Below, one piece after another: positions 1,766-33,494 of a stretch of DNA of 33,523 nt. Under the pieces are notes generated by a model. The model saw nothing but the letters and a program-made list of their open reading frames with translations, did not search any database and was not told the DNA's origin. The position numbers were made by a program, and so were the translations under genes. The stretch spans positions 15,015 to 48,537 of the forward strand of contig CAYUYV010000001.1 of NCBI GenBank assembly GCA_964449455.1, given 5' to 3'. The DNA is from an uncultured Alphaproteobacteria bacterium (lineage in GTDB: Bacteria; Pseudomonadota; Alphaproteobacteria; JAJFIK01). How positions within the stretch are numbered: the first letter of the stretch is position 1; every line of letters begins with the position of its first letter.

Positions 1766-1785
1766 CCTTGAACCTGGTTTTAAGG
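1766..1785. promoter_or_regulatory. Candidate regulator box (imperfect palindrome CCTTGAA-N6-TTTAAGG; TTAA-N7-TTCA on minus strand)
   Basis: Lies in the flgF / motAB-operon divergent intergenic region. It is one mismatch from the CtrA box TTAA-N7-TTAA, and its core CTGGTTTTAAGG (1774-1785) recurs exactly at 10182-10193. Confidence 0.45.
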
Positions 1786-1851
1786 TAGGGGAGCTAGTTT
1801 AAGTCAGCGTTTCTTTTGGGAAGAAACAATATTTGGAGAATAAAGACAAAG

Positions 1852-3459
1852 ATGTGGCTGAATTTATGTCGAATTCTCTCTTTCGCGTCCCTTTTCGTCG
1901 TCCGTGCTCCGGTTTTACTGGCTCCGACCACGGCGTGGGCCGATCTGACGCCTGATCATAGCTGTCCGAGGGCTGCGGATCTCTTCGATGCTATGCTGGA
2001 TGCGGAAGACAACACAATCCCGTCCCTTCACGCCGTGCGGACGGCAACACTGCGGTCTATCTCAAAGCCGGATGGAAACTCCGATGCGCTTCCGGGGGAT
2101 TGGGATCCGGCGCTCGCTCTGGCCGCGTCTCATGTTGCATACGGACTCTTTCATGAGGCTCACGGATTGCGCAATGAAATTGGTGAGACATGCCGAAACG
2201 TGTCCTGGCTCCTAGGAGCATCATTGATTGCCACAGGGAGTAAAGCTGCCCTTGGGCGTCTGGAATCCGATGCCGCGGCTGGTGATCGGGCTGCGGCGCT
2301 CTGGCTCATTCTTGGAGCCTCGATCCACCAGAAGGTCGATCTGGATCGGTCCAGATTTGGAGCAGCAACAGCTCATCTTGAGTTTCTTCCCAAGCCCTTA
2401 CGGCTGGCCGGACGGCTGCATCTCGCATTCGCCGCGCTGGAGGCTGGCCAAACCACACTTGCCGAGCGGCTTGTCGAGCGGGAGATCGCAAGTGATACTG
2501 TCATTGTTCCGCTCACGGGTAGTTTTCCACCAATTGCGCTCAAATCCTTGGTGTTTGGAATATTGGCAGAAAAGGATGGGGCAATCGAGACGGCGGCCAC
2601 ACAGTATGAGAGTGCTATCGCAGGGGGGGGACGGCCGGGCATCGAGGCGGCGCTGCGCCTCCTCAATCTCCGATGGCAGGGAGATCCTGCTCTGTTGTCC
2701 CAAACCATCCGTGCTCTCGAAGATCTTCGATGGACTTGGCGGGGCGATCCGATCGAACGGCGCATCCTACTCACCCTGATCCGGGCCTATTCTCTTGGCG
2801 GCCATCCTTTGATCGCGGCAAGCCTCGCCAGTGGAATGGTGGATCGCTTTGCTCATGGTGATGGGAATACGCAAGGCCATGAGATCATTGAGGATATCAT
2901 CAGTGCAAAACTGAACCAGCCTGCGCGGTCAACGGTGGAAGCATTGTTGCGCTTTGAAGTCCTGGCGCGCTACGCCAGGCAAGTGCTCATAACTGATGGT
3001 GCGTCTGAAAGTATTATGCAGATGCTCCGCATGCTTTCTGAGCAGCATCACCTACCCATTGAGGTGCTCAGGCCTGATACCAGGGGTGAACCAATCCGAC
3101 TTCCCATGCTCGGTCTGAAGGGGCAAGCCGCCGCACGCCCCGTGGGCGTTGAAGCCACAGCATATCAGGCCCGTACATATGAGGCGGGCCCGGAGCATAC
3201 TGTCTCACCCCTGCTTGCTGCGCTCACACAGGCAAAGGGGGTGACGCCCGCCGATTATGGTCTGTCGGACGAGGAACAACAAATGATGAGTCTGCTCGAC
3301 CCATCGGTTTCCTCTATTGATCCTACGGCGGCGGACAGTCCGTTTGCGTATATTGATGAGACCCTTCAGGCAAGTGCAGATCTTCAAACTCTGGTGGATA
3401 CATATCTACTGACCTTTTTGAGGGACAGTGGCGGACAGGCGGAAGGAGCTAGCCAATGA
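1852..3459 (+). CDS. Exported, alpha-helical TPR-like flagellar motor-associated protein (MotK-like candidate)
   Basis: Signal-peptide-like N-terminus ending APTTAWA-D, Ala/Leu-rich helical segments and an LEDLRWTWRGDPIE motif. Its stop overlaps the motA start (ATGA 3456-3459). The ORF track starts at TTG 1816; ATG 1852 is preferred. Confidence 0.6.
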   Translation: MWLNLCRILSFASLFVVRAPVLLAPTTAWADLTPDHSCPRAADLFDAMLDAEDNTIPSLHAVRTATLRSISKPDGNSDALPGDWDPALALAASHVAYGLFHEAHGLRNEIGETCRNVSWLLGASLIATGSKAALGRLESDAAAGDRAAALWLILGASIHQKVDLDRSRFGAATAHLEFLPKPLRLAGRLHLAFAALEAGQTTLAERLVEREIASDTVIVPLTGSFPPIALKSLVFGILAEKDGAIETAATQYESAIAGGGRPGIEAALRLLNLRWQGDPALLSQTIRALEDLRWTWRGDPIERRILLTLIRAYSLGGHPLIAASLASGMVDRFAHGDGNTQGHEIIEDIISAKLNQPARSTVEALLRFEVLARYARQVLITDGASESIMQMLRMLSEQHHLPIEVLRPDTRGEPIRLPMLGLKGQAAARPVGVEATAYQARTYEAGPEHTVSPLLAALTQAKGVTPADYGLSDEEQQMMSLLDPSVSSIDPTAADSPFAYIDETLQASADLQTLVDTYLLTFLRDSGGQAEGASQ

Positions 3460-5237: not shown

Positions 5238-5336
5238 TGGTTCTCGCTTCATTTAGTCAAATGCCGGATTTTCTCCCGCTTTAATCCCTACCGGATAGAC
5301 TGTTTGTGTTGCCATGCGCATGATCAGGAGGACCAT

Positions 5337-8132: not shown

Positions 8133-8189
8133 CCGCAGGCGCAATTCCTTTGCGATGTCGTCGGTCGCCGAGCAATCCAAGGAGTGAGA

Positions 8190-9260
8190 ATGTCCGTCCC
8201 CCTGTCCACATTGTCCATGAACCAGCGGTTGGCGTCGCATATCACCAAGATCCAGACTAACCTTGCGACAAAGGGCGAAGAGATGGGGTCGGGGCGGCAC
8301 ACCGATCTTGCCGCATCGACTGGAGCGCGATTTGCTGACCTGATTGATATGAGGGCGGATTTTAACCGTCTAAACGCGCAGGCACTCGGTCTCGACGTGT
8401 TCGAAAGATCGGCCGATGCAAAACAATCAGTCATGGGTGAGTTGTCTTCCACCTTGCAGGATTTTTTGGGGTCCATGTCGCCGGCGGTCAGTGACTTGAA
8501 TGCCCTGAGCAGGGATCTGCCGACTCTCGCCCGTCAGGCCCTGGATCACATAACGGATCTTTTGAATACGCCAGACAAGGATGGATTTCTTTTTGCCGGA
8601 GTGGCTCGATCGAGCCGGCCCATGGTCGGACCGGCGGAAGGGCCGGCTCCAACGCCACGGGATTTTGTATCCGCCAATGCGCTTCCCAATCCTCCGTCTA
8701 CCCTGGCAGATGTAGCGGCGTTGACGGCGTCTTTTGACACAATGTTTGACGCCGTGTCCTTTGACGGCGTTTTCTATAACGGAGCACCAGGCGGGCCAGG
8801 GCAAGCCCGTTTGCAAATTCCAATTGGTGGGCAGACGTCTCTCGACCTCGGTCTGCAAGGGAACGATCCAGCGATCCGTGACATTCTCCAGGGCCTTTAT
8901 ATGCTCGCCGCTGTGGACGTGGGCAAGCTGCCCAATGAAATTGAGCCCCCCCTGACAGCCGATATGGATCGCAACTCGCCCTATTGGGCCTTCATGGCGG
9001 CGGCATTTGACAAGATTGCTGGCGGTGCGGAAGCCGTGAACGAAGCCCAAGCGGAGTTGGGCCGGGAACAGGCAACGGCCGAGGATCTGCGAACGGTCAT
9101 CACTTCAAAGAAGATATTGCTCAGCAGCTCCATCAACGACATCGAGCAGGTGGATCCGTTCGAGACACAGATCCGATTCGCCACCTTGCAGTCACAGCTT
9201 GAGCAGAGCTTCCAGGTCACCGCACGCCTCGCCAGCCTGTCGCTGAGCAACTATCTCTAG
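8190..9260 (+). CDS. flgL: Hook-associated protein 3 FlgL
   Basis: Flagellin-like termini: EMGSGR, LLNT..GFLFAG, VDPFETQIRFATLQSQLEQSFQVTARLASLSLSNYL. Follows flgK; GGAG RBS before ATG 8190. Confidence 0.92.
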   Translation: MSVPLSTLSMNQRLASHITKIQTNLATKGEEMGSGRHTDLAASTGARFADLIDMRADFNRLNAQALGLDVFERSADAKQSVMGELSSTLQDFLGSMSPAVSDLNALSRDLPTLARQALDHITDLLNTPDKDGFLFAGVARSSRPMVGPAEGPAPTPRDFVSANALPNPPSTLADVAALTASFDTMFDAVSFDGVFYNGAPGGPGQARLQIPIGGQTSLDLGLQGNDPAIRDILQGLYMLAAVDVGKLPNEIEPPLTADMDRNSPYWAFMAAAFDKIAGGAEAVNEAQAELGREQATAEDLRTVITSKKILLSSSINDIEQVDPFETQIRFATLQSQLEQSFQVTARLASLSLSNYL

Positions 9261-9304: not shown

Positions 9305-10018
9305 TTATGCAACGGCACGGGTCTGCTCGGCGTCACTGCCGAGCCAACCAAGACGGTATCCCCGTCCAATAACGGTCTCAATGAAACGCTCCCCACCCGT
9401 TGCATTAGCAAGTTTGCGCCGCAGTTTACAGATATAGACGTCAATCACCTTGTCGAAGGGTTGCGATCCTGTCAGGCCATAGACGGCCTCAAACAGACCT
9501 TCCTTGCTGATCACTCGCCCGCGGCGTTCCGCAAGGGCCATAAAAATACTGTGCTCCCGGCGGCTGAGCTTGACCGGGCGTCCATCCACTTCAGGATCCC
9601 GTCCGTCGAGAAAAACCGTGAGCGGCCCAATCATGACACTGACTGGTTGCTGCTCGAGGCCCCGACGGCGCACAGCGTGAATTCGCGCTGCAATCTCCTG
9701 TGCCTTCACCGGCCTGATCAAACAATCATCCGCACCGGCCTGAAGTAATTGAACGATCCTTTCCGTCTGGCGGACATTCAGCATCGCCAGGAGGGGAATC
9801 GATGAATTTCTTGCCCTCAGTGTGCTCACCACGGCAGGCTCATCTTGCGTATCTCCAAGTAAAATGGCGAGATATGGCGGCGTCATGCCGTGTGTCCAGG
9901 GCAGGGCGTCCCCATGCTCCACCATATTGATCCTGTCCACATTGATTCGAATGTCCCTTAGGGACGATGTCAGACTATCCGCAATGATATCATCTGCTTC
10001 GATAAGCAGAATGCGCAT
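9305..10018 (-). CDS. OmpR-family flagellar transcriptional regulator with pseudo-receiver domain (Rem/FtcR-like, CtrA-related DNA-binding domain)
   Basis: MRILLIE start with GGAGGAG RBS, 237 aa. Contains GADDCLIRP, IAARIHAVRRR, GPLTVFLDGRDPEVDG and the winged helix KVIDVYICKLRRKL...IETVIGRGY. Confidence 0.85.
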   Translation of the reverse strand: MRILLIEADDIIADSLTSSLRDIRINVDRINMVEHGDALPWTHGMTPPYLAILLGDTQDEPAVVSTLRARNSSIPLLAMLNVRQTERIVQLLQAGADDCLIRPVKAQEIAARIHAVRRRGLEQQPVSVMIGPLTVFLDGRDPEVDGRPVKLSRREHSIFMALAERRGRVISKEGLFEAVYGLTGSQPFDKVIDVYICKLRRKLANATGGERFIETVIGRGYRLGWLGSDAEQTRAVA

Positions 10019-10176
10019 GTGCTCCTCCGAGACCTGGTTATCCTCTTCCAGGGGGAAGTGATAGCGGGGACTGCCGAAAAAGCTCCTCATGAATCACAGA
10101 TAATCTGTATAGCATTCCAATCAAACCTGACTCACCTTCAAGAAAAGATCATTTTGGCAAAATCAGGGAGGGGCGA

Positions 10177-10193
10177 ATGAACTGGTTTTAAGG
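10177..10193. promoter_or_regulatory. Second copy of candidate regulator box (ATGAACTGGTTTTAAGG)
   Basis: Lies between the divergent regulator and flgI. Its 12-bp core is identical to 1774-1785, and TGAA precedes it in both copies. Confidence 0.45.
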
Positions 10194-10206: not shown

Positions 10207-11370
10207 GTGCTTGCCATGATCAAGAAATATCGATGCCACGGCCTGCACTCTGTTTCTGCCCTGATGGCTCTGCATGCAATGGTCCTGTTCATGCTGATCA
10301 TCAGCACCGATGGAATCGCGGCGCGGGACCTCCGGATCAAGGATATCGTGTCCCTTGAAGGTGTCCGGTCCAACCAGCTTGTTGGCTATGGGCTCGTCGT
10401 GGGTCTTCCGGGGACGGGCGATCGTCTGAACAATGCTCCCTTCACCCAGCGCAGTCTTTCGAGCATGCTGGAAAGGCTGGGTATTTCGGTCAATGCCGAT
10501 GACATCCGTACACGAAATGTCGCGGCTGTTATGGTAACGGCCATGTTGCCGGCTTTCGCCAATGCTGGCTCGCGACTTGATGTTCAGATCGCGGCATTGG
10601 GGGATGCATCCAGCCTTCTTGGCGGTACACTGCTCGTGACACCCTTGCTCGGCGCTGACGGCGATGCCTATGCCCTGGCCCAGGGGCCGGTTCTTGTTGC
10701 CGGCTTTAATGCGCAAGGCGAAGCCGCCTCCGTCAGCAAGGGCGTGCCCACCAATGCGCGCATTCCCAATGGCGCCGTTGTGGAGAAGGAGGTGGATTTC
10801 ACCCTCGATGATGTCCATGCGCTCCAATTGTCTTTGCGCAATCCGGATTTCACCACGGCGATCCGAATTGCCGACCGGATCAATGGTGAGATTGGCAGTG
10901 GTGTGGCCCATCCAAGCGATGCTGCGACGGTTGACCTGGCGGTCCCCCGCCAGTTTCACGGCAATGTGGTGCGGTTCATCGCGGCAATTGAGACACTGAC
11001 GGTCATCACGGATCAGATTGCCCGGGTCGTTGTTGACGAGCGATCTGGTACAATCCTCATTGGAGAGAATGTCCGGGTTAGTCGGGTTGCCATAACACAG
11101 GGCTCGATCATGATCGAGGTGAACGAGACGCCCGTGGTCTCCCAACCCGCGCCGTTTTCAGAAACCGGTGAGACCACCGTTCTCCAGAGGTCGCGTGTTC
11201 GCGTAACGGAGCAACAGGGGGGCGGCTTTCGAATCGTGGAGGAGGGGACAACGCTGCAGGATCTTGTGAATGGGCTCAATGTGCTTGGCGTGCAGCCGCG
11301 CGATACGATTGCCATCCTCCAGGCCATCAAATCAGCCGGCGCGCTTCATGCGGACCTCATCGTTGAATAG
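10207..11370 (+). CDS. flgI: Flagellar P-ring protein FlgI
   Basis: RIKDIVSLEGVRSNQLVGYGLVVGLPGTGD, NVAAVMVTA, SLLGGTLLVTPL, NPDFTTA, LQAIKSAGALHA. True start may be one of the downstream ATGs. Confidence 0.97.
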   Translation: MLAMIKKYRCHGLHSVSALMALHAMVLFMLIISTDGIAARDLRIKDIVSLEGVRSNQLVGYGLVVGLPGTGDRLNNAPFTQRSLSSMLERLGISVNADDIRTRNVAAVMVTAMLPAFANAGSRLDVQIAALGDASSLLGGTLLVTPLLGADGDAYALAQGPVLVAGFNAQGEAASVSKGVPTNARIPNGAVVEKEVDFTLDDVHALQLSLRNPDFTTAIRIADRINGEIGSGVAHPSDAATVDLAVPRQFHGNVVRFIAAIETLTVITDQIARVVVDERSGTILIGENVRVSRVAITQGSIMIEVNETPVVSQPAPFSETGETTVLQRSRVRVTEQQGGGFRIVEEGTTLQDLVNGLNVLGVQPRDTIAILQAIKSAGALHADLIVE

Positions 11371-12229: not shown

Positions 12230-12267
12230 ATTTTACGCCGCTGAAAACGCAGCGGGTTAGTCTCATT

Positions 12268-12309
12268 GGCGCTGGCAACACGGACTGAGTGTTGTTCAGG
12301 CCCAGCGTC
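12268..12309 (+). promoter_or_regulatory. Structured flagellin 5' leader (nested stem-loop)
   Basis: GGCGCTGG(12268-75) pairs with CCAGCGTC(12302-09) and encloses CAACAC(12276-81)-GGACTGA-GTGTTG(12289-94), about 40 nt before the start codon. Confidence 0.45.
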
Positions 12310-12350
12310 AGAAGGCGCCGAAACGGACCTGTAGAAATGGGAGTTTGATC

Positions 12351-13814
12351 ATGGTCTCTATCTTGACAAACCAGTCGGCGCAAGTGGCTCTCCAGACCAT
12401 GCGCAATGTGTCGTCGAATTTGCAGGAGACGCAGAACCGCATTTCGACCGGACTTGAAGTGCGGTCGGCCAAGGATAACGCCGCCTATTTCCTTGTGGCG
12501 CAGACCGTGCGGGGCGATCTCTCCGTCCTCGAAGGATTGCGGGATAACCTGACTTTGTCGGTCAATGCGGCCAAGACGGCGACGAACGGGATCAATGCGA
12601 TTTCGGAGAATCTCAATGAGATCCAGAGCGCTCTGACAACGGCGGATACCGGCCAGGCGCTGGAAGAGCTGCAATTTGCCATCAACAATCTGGTGGAAGA
12701 AGTTGAGGGTACCATCAATGCCACATCCTTCAACGGTGTGAATCTCCTCAAAGGAAGTGGAACACAGACGGTCACGACATCGATTGTCCGTGATGGCGGA
12801 GACTTTCAGATCAACACCTTTACGCTTCGGTCCCAGGATCTGGACAACATTGTGGAAGACGCCAATCTCGATGTTCTGTACAGGACTTATGCTCCGGAGG
12901 CCGCGGAGCGGTTTGATGTTGACGGAAATGGCGCGGTCGATTTTACAAGTGCGGCGGATTCCAGCTTCTTTTCTCGCACCGTGCGGGAAGCAGTTGATAC
13001 GGATGGCAGTGGCACGATCGATGCGCCTGACTTTGCCGTCAATTTCGACATTGATGGCGACACCACCGACGATGCGCTCCAGCTTTCCGCTGAGGCGGTG
13101 GCCCAAGGGGCTGTCGAGCAATTTGAGGCCCTTGGCATAACCTTCTTCGATCGCGATGCAGGCATCATTGAAGATGCTGGTGCAAGTCAGTTCGCTGGTG
13201 TGACCAATCGAAATATTCTTGATGCTGTGGTGACGGAAGTGGCGGCAGCCGATACCTTCCTCATTTCGGCCGATGAGGATTTTCGCCAGCAGCTCGAAGA
13301 CAATGGGGTCGTGTTTAAGTTCGATGCGGCTGTTACCAGTGGCGCGGAAGCCGTTCAGCGTTTCTCCATCGACCTGACGGCGAACTCGTCCGTGATTGAC
13401 CCATCGTCCGGGACAGCCTTTACCAATCGGGAGCTCCTGGAACGGACGATTGACTCATCCTTCTTGCGCGGCGCGGCGGAGGCGTCGGGTTTCTCAGCCG
13501 TTTTGAGGAAGATCCAGGTCAATGGGCCGGATGGCAATGTGCAGGCTGGCCTGGTTCTGGCGGAATCGCTGATCTCCCGAGTCAATGTTAATTCCTCCAC
13601 GCTCGGCACATTCGAGCGTACTCTGGAGAGCCGTCAGAACTTCCTGGAGAACCTGACGGACTCCCTTGAAACGGGTGTCTCGTCCCTTGTCGAGGCGGAT
13701 CTTGATGAGGAATCGACCCGGTTGCAGGCTCTTCAGACTCAGGAACAGCTTGCCATCCAGGCCCTTACCATTGCGAACTCGCGGCCACAGAACGTTTTGT
13801 CCCTCTTCCGCTGA
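12351..13814 (+). CDS. fliC: Flagellin
   Basis: SILTNQSAQVALQTMR, TQNRISTGL..SAKDNAAYF, SFNGVNLL, C-terminal LVEADLDEESTRLQALQTQEQLAIQALTIAN..PQNVLSLFR. GGGAG RBS before ATG 12351. Confidence 0.97.
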   Translation: MVSILTNQSAQVALQTMRNVSSNLQETQNRISTGLEVRSAKDNAAYFLVAQTVRGDLSVLEGLRDNLTLSVNAAKTATNGINAISENLNEIQSALTTADTGQALEELQFAINNLVEEVEGTINATSFNGVNLLKGSGTQTVTTSIVRDGGDFQINTFTLRSQDLDNIVEDANLDVLYRTYAPEAAERFDVDGNGAVDFTSAADSSFFSRTVREAVDTDGSGTIDAPDFAVNFDIDGDTTDDALQLSAEAVAQGAVEQFEALGITFFDRDAGIIEDAGASQFAGVTNRNILDAVVTEVAAADTFLISADEDFRQQLEDNGVVFKFDAAVTSGAEAVQRFSIDLTANSSVIDPSSGTAFTNRELLERTIDSSFLRGAAEASGFSAVLRKIQVNGPDGNVQAGLVLAESLISRVNVNSSTLGTFERTLESRQNFLENLTDSLETGVSSLVEADLDEESTRLQALQTQEQLAIQALTIANSRPQNVLSLFR

Positions 13815-16948: not shown

Positions 16949-17081
16949 AGATCGTGCCCCTGTTCGTTTCCCTGAAGATTACGGCCGAGATGTAAAAAGA
17001 CCATCAGCGAGATGCAGCAGATCTGCTAAGAGGCGAAGCAAAGGGCATCCGTGAGGGGATGAAACACGGGAGGATCGAACC

Positions 17082-18607: not shown

Positions 18608-20677
18608 ATGGCCCCTGCGCTGTCCCTTGGTTCCGGCTTTGGTCATCGGGATGTCCTGTTTGCCGCAGGGATTCTCTTTGTCCTCACAATCTTGTTCCTC
18701 CCCATTCCGGCCTGGGCGCTGGATGTTGGTCTTGCCATCTCTCTGTCATTGAGCGTCTTGATCTTGATGGTTGTTCTGTGGATCGAAAAACCGATTGCAT
18801 TTTCATCCTTCCCCATGGTCCTGCTCGTGGCAACCATGCTGCGCCTTGCACTGAATATTGCATCAACACGGCTCATTCTGTCCCAAGGGCACAATGGAAC
18901 CAATGCCGCCGGTGGTGTGATCGAAGGGTTTTCCCAGTTCATCATGGGTGGGAACTTCGTCATTGGGATTATTGTCTTTGCCATCCTGGTGATCGTAAAC
19001 TTTGTCGTCATCACCAAGGGCGCGACACGTATTGCCGAAGTGGGGGCCCGGTTCACGCTTGACGCTATACCCGGCAAGCAGATGGCGATTGATGCGGATC
19101 TTTCCGCCGGGTTGATCGACGAGACGCAGGCTCGAACCCGGCGAAAGGAGCTCGAAGACGAAAGCACCTTTTTCGGTGCCATGGATGGCGCGTCAAAATT
19201 CGTGCGCGGAGATGCAGTTGCTGGACTGATCATCACCTTCATCAATGTCCTTGGTGGGATGATCATTGGCGTTGCGCAGATGGGAATGGATACCGGTGCC
19301 GCCGCAGCCGCCTATACCACCCTGACGGTCGGCGATGGGCTTGCCAGTCAGGTTCCCGCCGTCATCGTTTCGTTGGCCGCCGGTCTTCTTGTGGCCAAAG
19401 GCGGCACTCTTGGACGGGCTGAGCAGGCCGTTATGGATCAGCTCGGGGGATATCCCAAGGCATTGGCGATGGTCAGTATCTTGCTGCTGATTTTCGCGGC
19501 TGTTCCGGGGTTGCCGGCGCTGCCTTTCTTATGCATCGCCGCGGGTATGGGCAGCTTGAGTTGGATTCTCTTCCGAAAGGCCGCCTTAGAGACACCCAAT
19601 GAAGATGACCTGGAGGATGAGGGCATTCTCGATGCGTCCAGTACGGACGAGCGTGCTGAAGATGCATTGCAGGTCGAAGATATTCAGCTTGATGTCAATC
19701 CCCAACTGGTTGCGCATATTTCACAATCGGACAAGGGGCTTTCGCCTAAAATTAAGTCCCTCAGGCGCCGATTTGCACGGGATTATGGTTTTCTGCTGCC
19801 GCCTGTGCGCATCCGGGACAATGTTTATCTGCCCCATGAAAGTTATCGCATTTCGATCCAGGATATTGAAGTGGCGACGGGGCGGATCCGGATGCAACAC
19901 TGCCTGGTGATCGACCCGGCGGGGGAAAAGATCGACATGCCCGGCGAGGAAACCCGTGAGCCCACCTTCAACATGCCGGCCGTCTGGATCGATCCTGCGC
20001 GGGCGGAGGAAGCAGAGGCGAAGGGTTACACGGTCATTGATCCCGATAGCGTGATGGCCACTCATCTTGCCGAAGTGATCAGGGATCACTTGCCCCGTCT
20101 GCTGACCTATTCAGCGCTGCAACGGCTGCTTGACAGCTTGCCTGTGGAATATCACAAGTTGCTGCACGAACTCATCCCAGGACAGATGAGTGCCGTGATG
20201 CTCCAGAGAGTTCTTCAGGCTCTTTTGGAGGAAAGACTCTCCATCCGTAACTTGCCCATCATTCTGGAGGCCGTGACAGAGGCCGTATCCTGGACGCGGA
20301 ACATCACCATGATCGCGGAGCATGTACGCTCACGCCTCAGTCCACAGATTTGCAGTGCCCTCACCGCGCCGGATGGTTTCATCCCTGTCATTACGGTATC
20401 GCCCGCATGGGAACAGAGTTTCCTGGAAGCTATCCAGATTCAGGGGCAGGATCGGACCTTTTCCATGGCGCCAAGCCGGGTAAATGACTTCATTACCCAA
20501 GCGCGGGCTCGCATTCAGGAATACTCCACCATGGACTGTTGGCCGGCGATTTTGACGAGTGCAGAAACCAGGCCCTTCGTGCGCTCCCTTCTTGAGCGGG
20601 TGAGTGCAATGACACCCGTCATTTCCCATGCGGAACTCCATGCCAAAGCCGCTGTCCGGACCGTTGGCCAAATTTGA
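18608..20677 (+). CDS. flhA: Export apparatus protein FlhA
   Basis: RLALNIASTRLIL, VITKGATRIAEVGARFTLDAIPGKQMAIDADL, FFGAMDGASKFVRGDA; 689 aa. Confidence 0.98.
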   Translation: MAPALSLGSGFGHRDVLFAAGILFVLTILFLPIPAWALDVGLAISLSLSVLILMVVLWIEKPIAFSSFPMVLLVATMLRLALNIASTRLILSQGHNGTNAAGGVIEGFSQFIMGGNFVIGIIVFAILVIVNFVVITKGATRIAEVGARFTLDAIPGKQMAIDADLSAGLIDETQARTRRKELEDESTFFGAMDGASKFVRGDAVAGLIITFINVLGGMIIGVAQMGMDTGAAAAAYTTLTVGDGLASQVPAVIVSLAAGLLVAKGGTLGRAEQAVMDQLGGYPKALAMVSILLLIFAAVPGLPALPFLCIAAGMGSLSWILFRKAALETPNEDDLEDEGILDASSTDERAEDALQVEDIQLDVNPQLVAHISQSDKGLSPKIKSLRRRFARDYGFLLPPVRIRDNVYLPHESYRISIQDIEVATGRIRMQHCLVIDPAGEKIDMPGEETREPTFNMPAVWIDPARAEEAEAKGYTVIDPDSVMATHLAEVIRDHLPRLLTYSALQRLLDSLPVEYHKLLHELIPGQMSAVMLQRVLQALLEERLSIRNLPIILEAVTEAVSWTRNITMIAEHVRSRLSPQICSALTAPDGFIPVITVSPAWEQSFLEAIQIQGQDRTFSMAPSRVNDFITQARARIQEYSTMDCWPAILTSAETRPFVRSLLERVSAMTPVISHAELHAKAAVRTVGQI

Positions 20678-25416: not shown

Positions 25417-25577
25417 AAGACTGAAAGCCCTGATCCTGTATCGCTGTCTCCTGCGAAGGGGCACCCGGATGTTCCTAGAGCAAACGGGTTTCAGGCGACT
25501 TAAGCAGGAAGATCAAAGGTCAATCCTTTGCCGGATGAAATGAATGACTCTCTTCCTGTTTCTTGGCGGGGCTTCAA

Positions 25578-30382: not shown

Positions 30383-31888
30383 TCAGGAGTAAGTCAGGGC
30401 GTCCGTATCAAGATCGAGGGCGGGGATCTCGTCCTTTTCCCTCCAATAATCCTGGGTATGGCGCCAGTCCGGATGGTCACCCGCCTTGGGCAGCAGATGC
30501 ATGCTGCGTTTGATGTAGTTCGGGTTGAAATCGTCTTCGTCGATCCAGGGCCCGATTTTCATATTGTTCAGCCGGGCGGGGACCTGCGGTGTGACTTGCT
30601 TCACGCCCAACTCATCCATGTGTTTGAGCAGTCGGCAGACATAGTCACCCAGAAGATCAACACGAAGGGTCCAGCTGGCCCGGAAATATCCGAACACCCA
30701 CAACAGATTGGGTACACCGGTGAACATCATGCCGCGATAGGTTACCGTGTCCGACCAGTCGACCATCTTGCCATCCACCTCAAAGGGAATACCGCCGAGG
30801 ACGGACATGTTGAAGCCGGTTGCCGTGATGATGATGTCGGCCTCGATCTCTTCGCCTGATTTGAGCAGCAGGCCTTTGGGTGTGAAACGCTCGATGTGGT
30901 CCGTTCGCATGCTGGCCTTGCCGGAGGCCATGGATTTGAAAAGGTCTCCATCCGGAACGAAAGCAAGGCGCTGCTGCCACGGGCGATAATGCGGCGTCAG
31001 ATGCTTCTCCATGTCGAAATCAGGGCCGACATAGGGGCGTAAGGCCTCCAGCAGCTCCTGCTTCATCACGTCGGGCTCTTCTTTTGATCGGCGATCAAGC
31101 TCGCGCTGATTGAACAGCGCCACCCGGCGGACAATGTCGTGGATCGTCATTGGATCCACCTCGACGGCGCGCAACAAATCCGCGAGTTCATTGGCATTTT
31201 GGCCAGCGAAGAAATAGGTTGGCGAGCGTTGAACCATGGTCAGGTGTTCACAGTCCTCTGCCATCGCCGGAACAACCGTAGCGGCGGTTGCACCGGAGCC
31301 GATCAGGACCACTTTCTTGCCCTTGTAGTCGAGATTTTCCGGCCAGGTCTGAGGATGGACAATCTGCCCCTGGAAGGTTTCCATGCCCTCCCATTCGGGC
31401 GTGAAGCCCTTTTCATGCTGGTAATAGCCCTGGCACATCCACATGAAATTTGCAGTGAAATAGACTTTTTCATCCGTCTCCAGACGGGTGGCCTCGACAA
31501 TCCACATTTTGTGGTCGGAGTTCCAGGCTGCCTGGTCAATGCGGTGCCGGTACCGGATATGCTTGGCGAGGTCGTTCTCCTCGATCACCTCATCCATGTA
31601 TTTCAAGATTTCGTCCCGGGTCGCGATCGGTGCGCTCATCCAGGGTTTGAACCGGTAGCCGAAGGTGTAGAGGTCGGAGTCCGAGCGGATGCCGGGATAT
31701 TTGTGCACATGCCAAGTCCCGCCGAATGTGTCGTATTTCTCCAGGATGACGAAACTCTTGTCCGGACACTGTTGTTTCAGGTGGTAGGCCGATCCGACAC
31801 CGGAGATCCCGGCACCCGCGATCAGCACGTCGAAATGCTCCACATTGGCCTGTGCCCCAGGGAGCCCGACGGTTTCAATCCCAGACAT
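30383..31888 (-). CDS. Flavin-containing (EthA-like, Baeyer-Villiger-type) monooxygenase
   Basis: GAGISG FAD motif, FGGTW..YPGIRSDSD, fingerprint FQGQIVHPQTWP, GSGATA NADPH motif, QRSP, ATG motif. GAGG RBS supports ATG 31888 over track start 32002. Confidence 0.92.
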   Translation of the reverse strand: MSGIETVGLPGAQANVEHFDVLIAGAGISGVGSAYHLKQQCPDKSFVILEKYDTFGGTWHVHKYPGIRSDSDLYTFGYRFKPWMSAPIATRDEILKYMDEVIEENDLAKHIRYRHRIDQAAWNSDHKMWIVEATRLETDEKVYFTANFMWMCQGYYQHEKGFTPEWEGMETFQGQIVHPQTWPENLDYKGKKVVLIGSGATAATVVPAMAEDCEHLTMVQRSPTYFFAGQNANELADLLRAVEVDPMTIHDIVRRVALFNQRELDRRSKEEPDVMKQELLEALRPYVGPDFDMEKHLTPHYRPWQQRLAFVPDGDLFKSMASGKASMRTDHIERFTPKGLLLKSGEEIEADIIITATGFNMSVLGGIPFEVDGKMVDWSDTVTYRGMMFTGVPNLLWVFGYFRASWTLRVDLLGDYVCRLLKHMDELGVKQVTPQVPARLNNMKIGPWIDEDDFNPNYIKRSMHLLPKAGDHPDWRHTQDYWREKDEIPALDLDTDALTYS

Positions 31889-32093
31889 GGCTTGTTTCCT
31901 CGCCTTTCTTGGGGCATGGGCTGTAGATGCCGCGAAACATGCCCTCGGTGGACCCGCTTCGGCGCCAGGATGTCCCCCCGCGTCAGCAGAATTCGGCTTC
32001 ACAAAAGAGTGTATTCCGGCCCGTTCGCTGTGGACAAGCGCGCGGGCGTGGCTCGGGGGCTGCGGATCTCAGAAACAGAGCGAAATCCGGCAA

Positions 32094-33494
32094 TCAGCAG
32101 CCCCAGAGGCCAAGGGCCCGTTCCTGGCCGCGGATAGGATGGGTGCCGAGGGGCGTGAGCTCCTGGGCCGGGTCGTCGCCTTCGGCGCTCTCGGCCCTGG
32201 CTCGCGCCACGGCGGCATCTGTTGCAGCGATCCGTACACCAAGGGTTCGGGTCAAGTTCTCCACGCGGCTTGCCACATTGACCGTATCGCCAATGACGGC
32301 GAATTCCAGGCGGTTTGCCCCGATGTCCCCGAGCACGACAGGCCCGTAATGGAGCCCAATTCCCACTTGGAGTGGTGGCTCGCCTTTCTCGGCGCGCTCC
32401 ACATTCCAGGCGGTCACGGAGTCGGACATGGCCCGGGCGCAGGTGAGGGCGTTGCGCGCGTCCGTCCTGCCGGCCGCTGGCGTGCCAAAGGTGGCCATGA
32501 GGCCGTCGCCGAGGAATTTGTCGAGGGTGCCCCGGTGCCGGAACACTTCCGCCTCCATCCGAGTATGAAAGGCCCGCAAAGTCTCAATGACTTCCTGGGG
32601 CTGACGGTCGGCGGCAAAGCGGGTGAAGCCCACAATATCCACAAACAAGACCGCAACATTCTGCATGCGGATACTCTTGAGCGGCTCGTCATTGTTGGAG
32701 AGTTCTTCCACCACATTGGGCGAGAAATAGCGGGCCAAATTGGTGCGTTCGCGCTCAAGGCGCGCCTCGCGCATAAGAAGGCCTGAGAAGCGTTGGACCG
32801 TCGTGCCCAGAACCCAGGCGACAATGATGAAGACCACCACCTCTTGAATCCGGATCCACAACAGAAAACTGTTCGGGTCCAGAAAGTCGAGCATGACAGG
32901 CGAGTGCCCGAATGCCGCCTCAGCCGCAGCCGCGAGTTCTGGATCCGGCGTGGAGGCCAGCCAGATCAGGGTGAGCGCCCCAACCCAGCTGATTGCTGTC
33001 ATGGTTCCGATGCCACGCACGGTGCGCCAGGAATAGGCCAATGTGGCGAATGCGAGGATGACATAGAAGAATTTGAACGCCTCCGCACGCAACACCATAG
33101 GCACCGGCATGTCCGCGGCCATGAATGGATTGGGCACCGCAATCGCAATCGTCATGATGAGGATATCCGCGAAGATGAGCGCAGTTTCAGCGGTTGATCG
33201 GCCGACACGGGCAACCCGGCGCTGGAGCCATCCCACCAGGGCGAGCAAAATGATCAGCGCTTCGTAGAAAAGAGCGGTCCGAAACGAAGAGGTCAGCAGG
33301 ATCAAGACCGCAATAACGGCGAGGGCCAAAAGACGGGCTCGGAACGCCAGATCCATCCCCTCGCGCTTGTGTCGCTCCAGCGCGGCCTGGGCAAAGCGCC
33401 CGCCCGGTTCTTCGCCGCCCGGTTCTTCGCCGGACGGATCGGCGGCGGTGTCCATCCCGGAAAGCTTGTCGTCAAACGAGCGGCGCGGCGTCAT
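32094..33494 (-). CDS. Membrane-bound class III adenylate/guanylate cyclase
   Basis: About six hydrophobic segments, then LARYFSP, VLFVDIVGFT, DKFLGDGLMATFG, IGLHYG, IGDTVNVASRVE. Alternative start at 33455. Confidence 0.92.
   Translation of the reverse strand: MTPRRSFDDKLSGMDTAADPSGEEPGGEEPGGRFAQAALERHKREGMDLAFRARLLALAVIAVLILLTSSFRTALFYEALIILLALVGWLQRRVARVGRSTAETALIFADILIMTIAIAVPNPFMAADMPVPMVLRAEAFKFFYVILAFATLAYSWRTVRGIGTMTAISWVGALTLIWLASTPDPELAAAAEAAFGHSPVMLDFLDPNSFLLWIRIQEVVVFIIVAWVLGTTVQRFSGLLMREARLERERTNLARYFSPNVVEELSNNDEPLKSIRMQNVAVLFVDIVGFTRFAADRQPQEVIETLRAFHTRMEAEVFRHRGTLDKFLGDGLMATFGTPAAGRTDARNALTCARAMSDSVTAWNVERAEKGEPPLQVGIGLHYGPVVLGDIGANRLEFAVIGDTVNVASRVENLTRTLGVRIAATDAAVARARAESAEGDDPAQELTPLGTHPIRGQERALGLWGC
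33401..33430. repeat. 15-bp perfect tandem duplication inside the cyclase 5' end
   Basis: CGCCCGGTTCTTCGC occurs twice (33401-33415, 33416-33430) and encodes GEEPG-GEEPG. Confidence 0.9.

Follow-up and report, generated by a model that had tools for sequence, protein, structure and literature searches.

Flagella of the rhizobial type have Rem, FtcR and LafR as their known class I regulators, a group characterised by activation of class II flagellar genes. CtrA is the master response regulator of the cell cycle and of flagella in Alphaproteobacteria; it binds TTAA-N7-TTAA and is under the control of CckA-ChpT. Rem of Sinorhizobium meliloti has homologues in FtcR of Brucella, LafR of Bradyrhizobium and ActR of Azorhizobium, and the KEGG-type name for such proteins is 'flagellar system response regulator FtcR'. 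The present study deals with a gene related both to these regulators and to CtrA, found in an uncultured alphaproteobacterium (assembly GCA_964449455.1) at positions 9305-10018, minus strand, of a stretch of 33,523 nucleotides (contig CAYUYV010000001.1, positions 15,015 to 48,537), which is referred to below as the window. The window carries one flagellar cluster, and the frame of the regulator gene is intact, with 237 codons encoding an OmpR-type product. A first-pass annotation had described the gene as inverted between flgL and flgI, which is borne out by the layout of the open reading frames (ORFs; Table 1).

In the passages available from the respective sources, LafR is characterised as an orphan for which phosphorylation is unnecessary (PMC8429497) and FtcR as lacking both a partner kinase and a canonical phosphorylation site (PMC13609056). 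The window protein is likewise an orphan OmpR-type regulator inside a flagellar cluster. A Pfam scan of 41 ORF products from the window and the 15 kb upstream of it gave no match to a histidine-kinase domain, and the absence of a kinase gene noted in the first-pass annotation is confirmed among these products. The same annotation had placed the protein between CtrA and Rem/FtcR, had judged its receiver probably non-phosphorylatable and had proposed that it uncouples the flagellum from CckA-ChpT. The first two of these claims were upheld by the analyses reported here and the third was not. The regulator belongs to a so far uncharacterised family, termed family X below, whose closest relatives are regulators of known kind (Rem/FtcR/LafR and CtrA). 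It is probably a phosphorylation-independent, dimeric activator of its own flagellar cluster and a member of a CtrA-derived lineage, sister or stem to Rem/FtcR/LafR, that reads CtrA-like repeats.

Receiver domain

The receiver-like domain of the regulator has lost the canonical acceptor Asp, the Ser/Thr and the Lys, and its alpha4-beta5-alpha5 face is conserved. Every string quoted in the first-pass annotation is present in the translation. The acidic pocket reads MRILLIEADD (E7-A8-D9-D10), YLAILLGDT places G55 and D56 after strand beta3, PLLAMLN lacks a Ser/Thr after beta4, and CLIRPV has R102 instead of Lys; ARIHAV, GPLTVFLDGRDPEV, LSRREH and KVIDVYICKLRRKLANATGGERFIETVIGRGY were found as well. 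In an alignment with CtrA of the source genome and of S. meliloti and with six further OmpR-type regulators of the source genome, D8 of CtrA corresponds to A8 and D9 is retained, the acceptor D51 corresponds to G55 with D56 next to it, and S79 and K101 correspond to L80 and R102. In the count made across the family, the window protein retains two of the five canonical residues. In a larger alignment D56 falls in the acceptor column itself; since the two alignments place it differently, the Asp stands either at the acceptor position or one residue beyond.

All of the 23 CtrA sequences surveyed have the complete set of two acidic residues, acceptor Asp, Ser/Thr and Lys, which the window protein does not have; its receiver, without the canonical phosphorylation site, is of the kind found in Rem, FtcR and LafR. 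Amongst the 120 best database relatives of the regulator, none of the five residues is present in 28, one in 37, two in 53 and three in 2, and no sequence has more than three. An Asp within one column of the acceptor position occurs in 26 of the 120, and the two closest homologues also have the G-D pair. Judged from these alignments, degeneracy of the receiver is a trait of family X as a whole and not a one-off of the window protein.

The domain make-up is otherwise that of a two-domain OmpR/PhoB regulator. The DNA-binding domain passes the gathering score of Pfam Trans_reg_C (PF00486; 68.9 bits against a cut-off of 26.2, residues 146-223), whereas Response_reg (PF00072) matches residues 59-113 only and does not reach its own (22.2 against 30.2 bits). 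An AlphaFold model built from an alignment of 57 family sequences (mean predicted local distance difference test, pLDDT, of 86.9) has a receiver with five strands and four of the five helices (1, 3, 4 and 5), followed by a normal winged helix-turn-helix; residues 31-50, where helix 2 would be expected, are modelled as low-confidence coil. The top Foldseek matches of the model are the full-length OmpR/PhoB regulators PrrA, RpaA, CosR, VanR, HP1043 and RitR.

When two copies of residues 1-125 were modelled together, a homodimer was predicted with an ipSAE of 0.71, compared with 0.00 for the best control, with contact agreement between runs of at least 78% and pLDDT of at least 80. The predicted interface is formed by residues 85-120, that is, by the alpha4-beta5-alpha5 face. 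Calibration of the mark applied here gave passes for 20 of 30 proteins whose solved structures are pairs and for 1 of 23 whose solved structures are single chains; the pass may nevertheless reflect likeness only, because solved OmpR/PhoB receivers pair in the same way. Positions conserved throughout family X sit on this same face and in the DNA-binding domain.

Atypical OmpR/PhoB regulators that act independently of phosphorylation and have solved structures are among the fold matches. HP1043 (2hqr), RitR (5u8k), CosR (8uvk) and GlnR (8hih) have the same two-domain fold as the window protein (Foldseek E 1e-9 to 1e-14) and, according to their entry titles, employ the receiver as a dimerisation or other module, which is the idea proposed here. 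They are only 22-24% identical to the window protein, come from other lineages and show no specific kinship with it and, unlike it, none is CtrA-derived or resident in a flagellar cluster.

Kinship with CtrA and Rem/FtcR

The best NCBIfam match of the window protein is CtrA (NF045991), with 143.2 bits and a lead of 54 bits over the next family (89 bits), which agrees with the CtrA-like identity first proposed. This score is below the CtrA equivalog cut-off of 350 bits, and the canonical ctrA, for which the first-pass annotation had advised a search, was found on a separate contig of the genome with 423.1 bits. Four family X proteins score 102-176 bits on the CtrA model, with CtrA always the best family (lead 11 to 75 bits), and three Rem-like proteins score 60-78 bits, with CtrA best in two of the three (lead 2 and 11 bits). 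Because the scores drop in steps from 423 through 102-176 to 60-78 bits, and because the segments of the protein form a mosaic, family X can be regarded as the link that makes the kinship of Rem/FtcR with CtrA visible. Full-length identity of the window protein is 36-41% to CtrA and 30-32% to Rem. A Rem query against the source genome returned the window gene as its top match (E 1.1e-26) and not ctrA. The automatic names of the Joint Genome Institute are CtrA for members of family X and FtcR for Rem-like proteins.

The recognition helix and wing of the window protein (residues 189-225) are 66% identical to CtrA (range 62-70, n=23), compared with 30% to Rem-like proteins and 33% to the outgroup. 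For the hairpin and helix 1 (121-165) the corresponding values are 34%, 39% and 20%, and for the receiver (1-120) 32%, 24% and 28%. The recognition helix and wing read DVYICKLRRKL...IETVIGRGY, the CtrA type, whereas Rem has ESHISKLRKKL...IDSKRFLGY, and the Rem-type helix and wing are not found in the window protein; the Rem strings cited in the first-pass annotation were compared with the S. meliloti sequence, which reads FLIGQG, GPIRVFADGRDPEI, LPRRER and VVESHISKLRKKL. The length of the alpha3-wing loop is equal in 14 of 18 family X rows and in every one of the 23 CtrA rows. On the other hand, resemblance to Rem rather than CtrA is seen in the beta-hairpin and helix 1, and the hairpin bears the DGRDPE motif common to Rem. 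By these segment identities the mosaic noticed in the first-pass annotation, a CtrA-like recognition head with a Rem-like hairpin, is real.

The main phylogeny was an IQ-TREE tree of 64 rows, comprising 18 family X, 23 CtrA and 17 Rem-like proteins and the six other OmpR-type regulators of the source genome as outgroup; one CtrA row from an unpublished genome was omitted. Family X and Rem were grouped with support of 100/100, Rem alone with 100/100, CtrA with 93/94, and the three together against the outgroup with 100/99. The 17 Rem-like rows form a clade (100/100) that excludes the window protein and stands on a stem of 4.5 changes per column, and X and Rem join one node lower. Family X was monophyletic in only 8% of bootstrap trees, with Rem branching beside or within it. 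Quick trees of the separate domains, as had been advised, gave support for X plus Rem of 95 for the DNA-binding domain and 99 for the receiver, and in neither does the window protein nest in the Rem/FtcR crown clade, the placement that would have spoken against the first-pass reading. The protein is thus intermediate in the sense that it groups with Rem/FtcR in trees and keeps the recognition helix of CtrA.

Three rare characters agree with this grouping in the aligned rows. An extra residue in the alpha2-alpha3 loop is present in all 18 family X and all 17 Rem rows, and in none of the 23 CtrA or six outgroup rows. A DG[RQ]D[PA] motif in the hairpin occurs in 18/18 X and 14/17 Rem rows, again with none in CtrA (0/23) or the outgroup (0/6). 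The position after the helix-1 Glu is Tyr in 23/23 CtrA rows and Phe or Tyr in 5/6 of the outgroup, and the aromatic is lost in every X row (His in 17/18) and every Rem row (Arg in 15/17). The window protein has all three in common with Rem/FtcR.

The S. meliloti regulator used as rem, which we take to be rem from its gene order and from the FtcR names of its relatives, lies between fliK/SLT and flgE-flgK-flgL-flaF-flbT, and its record labels the gene only as a response regulator. Its position (fliK - SLT - rem - flgE - flgK - flgL - flaF - flbT, also seen in Phyllobacterium) differs from the order flgK - flgL / regulator / flgI of the window. The Rem group of the trees contains S. meliloti, other Rhizobiaceae, Phyllobacterium, Microvirga, Methylobacterium and others, the Rem-like sequences having been taken from Phyllobacterium, Shinella, Microvirga, Agrobacterium, Rhizobium, Hoeflea, Methylobacterium, Chelatococcus, Afifella, Starkeya, Ancylobacter and Amorphus. 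A search of genome contigs with a Rem alignment returned just close Rhizobiaceae-type Rem genes (79-96% identity) and neither FtcR of Brucella nor LafR of Bradyrhizobium. In an evenly drawn sample of 401 genomes of the class no strong Rem orthologue was found, with seven candidates scored per genome, so that the distribution of Rem is barely constrained by this search; its three matches at E <= 1e-25 all belong to family X.

Two observations were made on the records surveyed for Rem. Genes resembling Rem/FtcR, with 46-52% identity to Rem of S. meliloti, are present on Microvirga plasmids (L044 6959-7627; L045; L046), and in L044 (Microvirga sp. VF16), the sole annotated locus of the three, the gene lies outside a flagellar context amid plasmid backbone-like genes. 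The 3.7 Mb PLSDB record CP090106.1 (L011, L015), titled plasmid pSymB of S. meliloti Ak57, contains ctrA, a chpT-like gene and the chromosomal flagellar regulon and looks like the chromosome filed under a plasmid name; the S. meliloti ctrA and rem sequences used here were both taken from this record.

Distribution and constraint of family X

The two database proteins closest to the regulator share 74% and 68% identity with it, and all others among the matches listed are at or below 50%. The exact DGRDP motif is present in 115 of the 120 best relatives, amongst which the named members come from Azospirillum, Arenibaculum, Rhodocista, Iodidimonas, Oricola, Hyphococcus, Salipiger, Frigidibacter and Pseudoroseicyclus. 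Eighty records of a plasmid collection match the regulator at E <= 1e-20, a set in which members of family X and genes for canonical CtrA are mixed; going by the first word of the organism name, 23 of these records come from Azospirillum and 11 from Sulfitobacter. Of 400 further alphaproteobacterial genomes, sampled evenly, only two had a member of family X (E ~1e-60), and 22 further matches at 1e-36 to 1e-37 are canonical CtrA genes. Family X is therefore rare among Alphaproteobacteria.

On plasmid pMaD5 of Marinovum algicola the regulator gene occupies the identical inverted slot between flgL and flgI. The pMaD5 cluster is treated as the reference fla2-type cluster in the part of the literature retrieved (PMC12363192). 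The slot flgK-flgL / regulator / flgI is kept in the window, in genome G401, on pMaD5 and in Roseivivax, Alloyangia and Salipiger, and in two Sulfitobacter plasmid loci the regulator-flgL-flgK part only was seen. In Azospirillum brasilense and Azospirillum sp. B510 the family X gene adjoins a flagellar cluster or a flagellin gene. By gene order, family X thus occupies fla2-type clusters on plasmids of Rhodobacterales and flanks flagellar clusters on Azospirillum chromids.

Within the 12 genomes of the source organism's order in the collection, family X was found in two of one genus, the source genome (G000) and G401, the latter having a fully syntenic flagellar cluster. A third genome of this genus, G364, has a flhA 95% identical to that of the window, and its assembly does not contain the flgL-regulator-flgI stretch. 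Between G000 and G401 the regulator shares 68% identity, compared with 89% for FlgI, 93% for FlhA and 97% for flagellin. The ratio of nonsynonymous to synonymous substitution rates (dN/dS) against the G401 orthologue is 0.15 for the whole gene and 0.09 for the DNA-binding domain; in the receiver synonymous sites are saturated, and the proportion of nonsynonymous differences (pN) is 0.31 compared with 0.12 in the DNA-binding domain. The gene is under purifying selection, and 33 positions are invariant among 57 family members that are 37-74% identical.

Candidate DNA sites

The candidate operators of the window are listed in Table 1. The TGAA-N7-TTAA at 1769-1783 is retained at the orthologous place in G401. 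The site in the regulator/flgI divergent region contains TTAAAACCAGTTCAT, 159-173 bp upstream of the regulator start, and in A. brasilense, G357, B510 and G185 a site starting TTAAA, of TTAAA(A)CC type, lies 154-177 bp upstream of the respective start. The motif TTTC-N7-TTAA was derived from conserved blocks in the aligned intergenic regions of G000 and G401; in G401 it occurs once in each of two stretches, at the orthologous places.

In several relatives the boxes are clearer. The Marinovum cluster has two TTAA-N7-TTAA boxes with at most one mismatch, against 0.30 expected, and both are intergenic, a perfect one between the regulator and flgI and one with a single mismatch upstream of flgE. 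At the A. brasilense locus, for which 0.02 boxes are expected, two overlapping ones lie 150-180 bp upstream of the regulator. Out of 12 family loci, six (Marinovum, A. brasilense, G357, Azospirillum B510, G185 and Sulfitobacter M368) have a box with at most one mismatch within 400 bp upstream of the regulator, where about 1.3 loci would be expected from the summed per-locus shuffle frequencies; three Azospirillum-type loci in this count are kin, and the Indioceanicola start was estimated.

These upstream boxes bear on the proposed uncoupling from CckA-ChpT. CtrA-type boxes before the regulator gene in half of the loci argue against full uncoupling and fit control by CtrA at least equally well, so that this part of the first-pass annotation was not sustained. 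They suggest a cascade beneath CtrA, or autoregulation, rather than uncoupling.

Two candidate signals were set aside. The 11-mer TGGTTTTAAGG, common to the candidate sites at 1769..1785 and 10183-10193, is not significant alone, since many 11-mers recur within a sequence of 33 kb; at a tolerance of two mismatches there are five matches against 3.85 expected. The motif TTAAAACCRG, searched over 135 loci, was found besides the window only in A. brasilense, which was partly its source, and at one Shinella Rem locus, and gained no independent validation. The Shinella match (metagenome-assembled genome, L085 3906-3915) lies about 90 bp upstream of the Rem gene; it may be due to chance, the other 79 Rem loci having no match.

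Possible role of the regulator

The regulator gene would encode the resident transcription factor of the flagellar cluster, an orphan of OmpR type, and its context suggests the role of a master regulator. Family X would be CtrA-derived and the closest relative, as sister or stem group, of Rem/FtcR/LafR. The receiver may have lost its phospho-switch function and serve as a constitutive dimerisation module through the alpha4-beta5-alpha5 face, in which case the activity of the regulator would be set mainly by the amount of protein made. The dimer would bind CtrA-type direct repeats whose TTAA-like half-sites recur at a distance of 11 bp, located in promoter regions of the cluster that are divergent or lie upstream of its operons, and, once bound, would activate the early flagellar operons. 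A box at the regulator's own promoter, as found in many relatives, would place the gene under the host CtrA or under its own control.

A number of points weigh against this reading. The window shows no excess of full TTAA-N7-TTAA boxes at a tolerance of one mismatch (2 found, 1.87 expected), and no such box was found in the 400 bp upstream of the regulator in six of the 12 loci, namely the window, G401, Indioceanicola, Roseivivax, Alloyangia and Salipiger. The site at 10177..10193 is absent upstream of the regulator in G401. The two window matches to TTTC-N7-TTAA, both intergenic, compare with 0.26 expected and are equalled in 3 of 100 shuffles, and these, like the matches to TTAAAACC, were counted post hoc in the same sequences from which the motifs had been derived. 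All of the candidate sites could be bound by canonical CtrA, and whether CtrA or the resident regulator is the binder cannot be told from their sequence. As regards phylogeny, the outgroup consists of only six regulators from a single genome, LafR of Bradyrhizobium and FtcR of Brucella are absent from the trees, and the approximately unbiased (AU) test keeps a topology that joins family X with CtrA and leaves Rem apart (log-likelihood difference 15.1, p-AU 0.13). Finally, D56 beside the acceptor position and an Arg in place of Lys may leave a small chance of phosphorylation.

The regulator might instead compete with CtrA at CtrA boxes and so repress or re-time genes, for instance in cross-regulation between the two flagellar systems of the genome, a role that we regard as unlikely. 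The recognition helix is almost identical to that of CtrA, and the genome contains canonical CtrA, a gene for a ChpT-type phosphotransferase and two FlhA genes that would provide the setting for such competition. The nearest characterised relatives, Rem, LafR and FtcR, are however described as activators in the sources retrieved, and a gene that moves with its cluster on plasmids, into hosts with differing second systems, fits a needed factor better than a brake.

About equally doubtful is the possibility that the receiver is a sensor of another kind, with dimerisation or DNA binding switched by a bound small molecule or protein partner, the regulator then being an orphan but not constitutive. 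This would account for a receiver that is constrained yet fast-evolving, with a pN well above that of the DNA-binding domain, and for the variable, poorly modelled region (31-50) that replaces helix alpha2, and the atypical receivers RitR and HP1043, matched by fold, use non-phosphoryl switches according to their entry titles. Neither a conserved pocket nor a partner gene was identified, and the positions conserved in the family lie on the dimerisation face and in the DNA-binding domain.

That the protein is an ordinary phospho-accepting response regulator, with D56 phosphorylated by ChpT or an unlinked kinase, appears less probable still. Although the Asp stands at or next to the acceptor position in the protein and its two closest homologues, D9 is kept, Arg is a conservative replacement for Lys and a ChpT-type gene is at hand, the Ser/Thr switch is Leu and one acidic pocket residue Ala, few of the best relatives (26/120) have an Asp within one column of the acceptor, the cluster has no kinase gene and the Pfam receiver model stays below its cut-off. 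A decaying CtrA paralogue without function, as the lost active site and the low identity (68%) between two congeneric species beside 89-97% for flgI, flhA and fliC might suggest, is very improbable, given intact frames in all loci seen, a dN/dS of 0.15, 33 invariant positions in 57 members and synteny conserved across orders.

A wider and more tentative proposal may also be put forward. Proteins of family X could be constitutively active mimics of phosphorylated CtrA on horizontally mobile flagellar clusters (fla2 on Rhodobacterales plasmids, Azospirillum chromids). Transferred clusters with CtrA-box promoters could then be expressed, or be placed under the host CtrA by way of a single box in the promoter of the regulator gene, and neither would call for a matching CckA-ChpT relay in the host; Rem/FtcR/LafR of Rhizobiales might then descend from such a mimic that later changed its DNA specificity. 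No discussion of the origin of Rem, FtcR and LafR was found in the literature searched. Family X, with the derived features of Rem and the reading head of CtrA, would be a living intermediate that makes descent from CtrA visible and testable, and reading of CtrA boxes without phosphorylation, if true, would explain how a whole flagellar cluster comes to be expressed after transfer between hosts.

Family X also supplies candidate regulators for two sets of flagellar clusters for which the papers seen name none. In the retrieved portion of a 2026 paper on Marinovum, the gene on the plasmid-borne fla2 cluster, a cluster type of roseobacters, is drawn in a figure only as 'cheY (response regulator)' (PMC12843797). 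According to the passages seen of a review, A. brasilense encodes neither visNR nor rem (PMC8429497), and family X is a candidate for the second flagellar cluster of that genus. No published description of the family was found in the literature searched, and it is not mentioned in the passages retrieved from an Azospirillum two-component survey and the R. centenum genome paper.

Gene model and flagellar cluster

The sequence GGAGGA lies 5 nt 5' of the regulator ATG at 10018, and the closest homologues begin with the identical MRILL. For these reasons the start at 10018 was preferred and a longer ORF starting at 10090 was rejected.

Table 1. Features of the window around the regulator gene and candidate operators
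Feature	Position	Strand	Evidence
Regulator coding sequence (P0001)	9305..10018	(-)	ORF and translation, 237 amino acids plus stop
Shine-Dalgarno GGAGGA of regulator	10023..10028	(-)	Read from sequence
Degenerate receiver-like domain, residues 1-120	9659..10018	(-)	Alignments, sub-cut-off Pfam Response_reg, AlphaFold model, predicted homodimer
OmpR/PhoB-type winged helix-turn-helix, residues 128-225	9344..9637	(-)	Pfam Trans_reg_C, segment identities, indels
flgL (hook-associated protein), convergent neighbour of regulator	8184..9260	(+)	Pfam Flagellin_N/C
flgI (P-ring protein), divergent neighbour of regulator	10207..11370	(+)	Pfam FlgI, 452 bits
Candidate operator TGAA-N7-TTAA(GG), flgF/orf547-motA divergent region	1769..1785	(.)	One of two window boxes (1769-1783)
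Candidate operator, regulator/flgI divergent region	10177..10193	(.)	TTAAAACCAGTTCAT towards regulator, CtrA-type box with 2 mismatches
Candidate operator TTTC-N7-TTAA upstream of flgE	5270..5284	(+)	Motif match, kept at orthologous G401 place
Candidate operator TTTC-N7-TTAA, fliL/fliF divergent region	25489..25503	(+)	Motif match, kept in G401

The cluster begins in the window with flgG, flgF / orf547, motA, motB, flgE, flgK, flgL / regulator / flgI and continues with the rod-binding protein gene, orf172, flagellin, flaF, flbT, DUF1217 / fliI / orf131, flgC, fliE, fliQ, flhA, fliR, flhB / orf227, orf207, fliM, fliL / fliF, orf218, fliN, fliP, fliG and orf187. Upstream of the window the contig prolongs it with flgA, flgH, flgD and fliK. 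A second flhA of the source genome (G000 contig C55:17920-19953, locus L133) is 51% identical to that of the window (18608-20677), and because of these two flhA genes the genome is considered to have two flagellar systems. In the same genus, G364 and G401 have both flagellar types, and G402 and G403 the second type only.

The ORF of 547 amino acids at 1816-3459 (plus strand), 5' of motA, has no Pfam match and is 45% identical between G000 and G401; a hypothetical gene of comparable size stands in its place on Marinovum pMaD5. A sigma-70-family sigma factor gene lies near the regulator in the clusters of Marinovum (L009 23999-24501) and A. brasilense (L010 13109-14005), and none was found in the window cluster or its upstream 15 kb.

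The flagellin of 489 amino acids (12345-13814, plus strand) is the most conserved cluster protein, at 97% identity to the G401 copy, and its middle part contains Asp-rich loops (DVDGNGAVDF, DTDGSGTID) with an EF-hand Pfam match below the cut-off (E 4e-4). The stretch 5' of its gene, 12230-12344, hardly differs between G000 and G401, surpassing most coding parts in conservation, and could serve as a promoter or as a leader through which FlaF/FlbT exert control. About 60 bp of the fliI/orf131 divergent region (16949-17081) are near-identical in the two genomes, reading TTCGTTTCC.TGAAGATTACG...AGATGTAAAAAGACCATCAGC, and no known motif was assigned to them. The cluster ends at about 30860, and beyond it are a flavin monooxygenase-like gene and a gene for a protein with an adenylate/guanylate cyclase domain (32094-33494 and 30383-32002, both on the minus strand).

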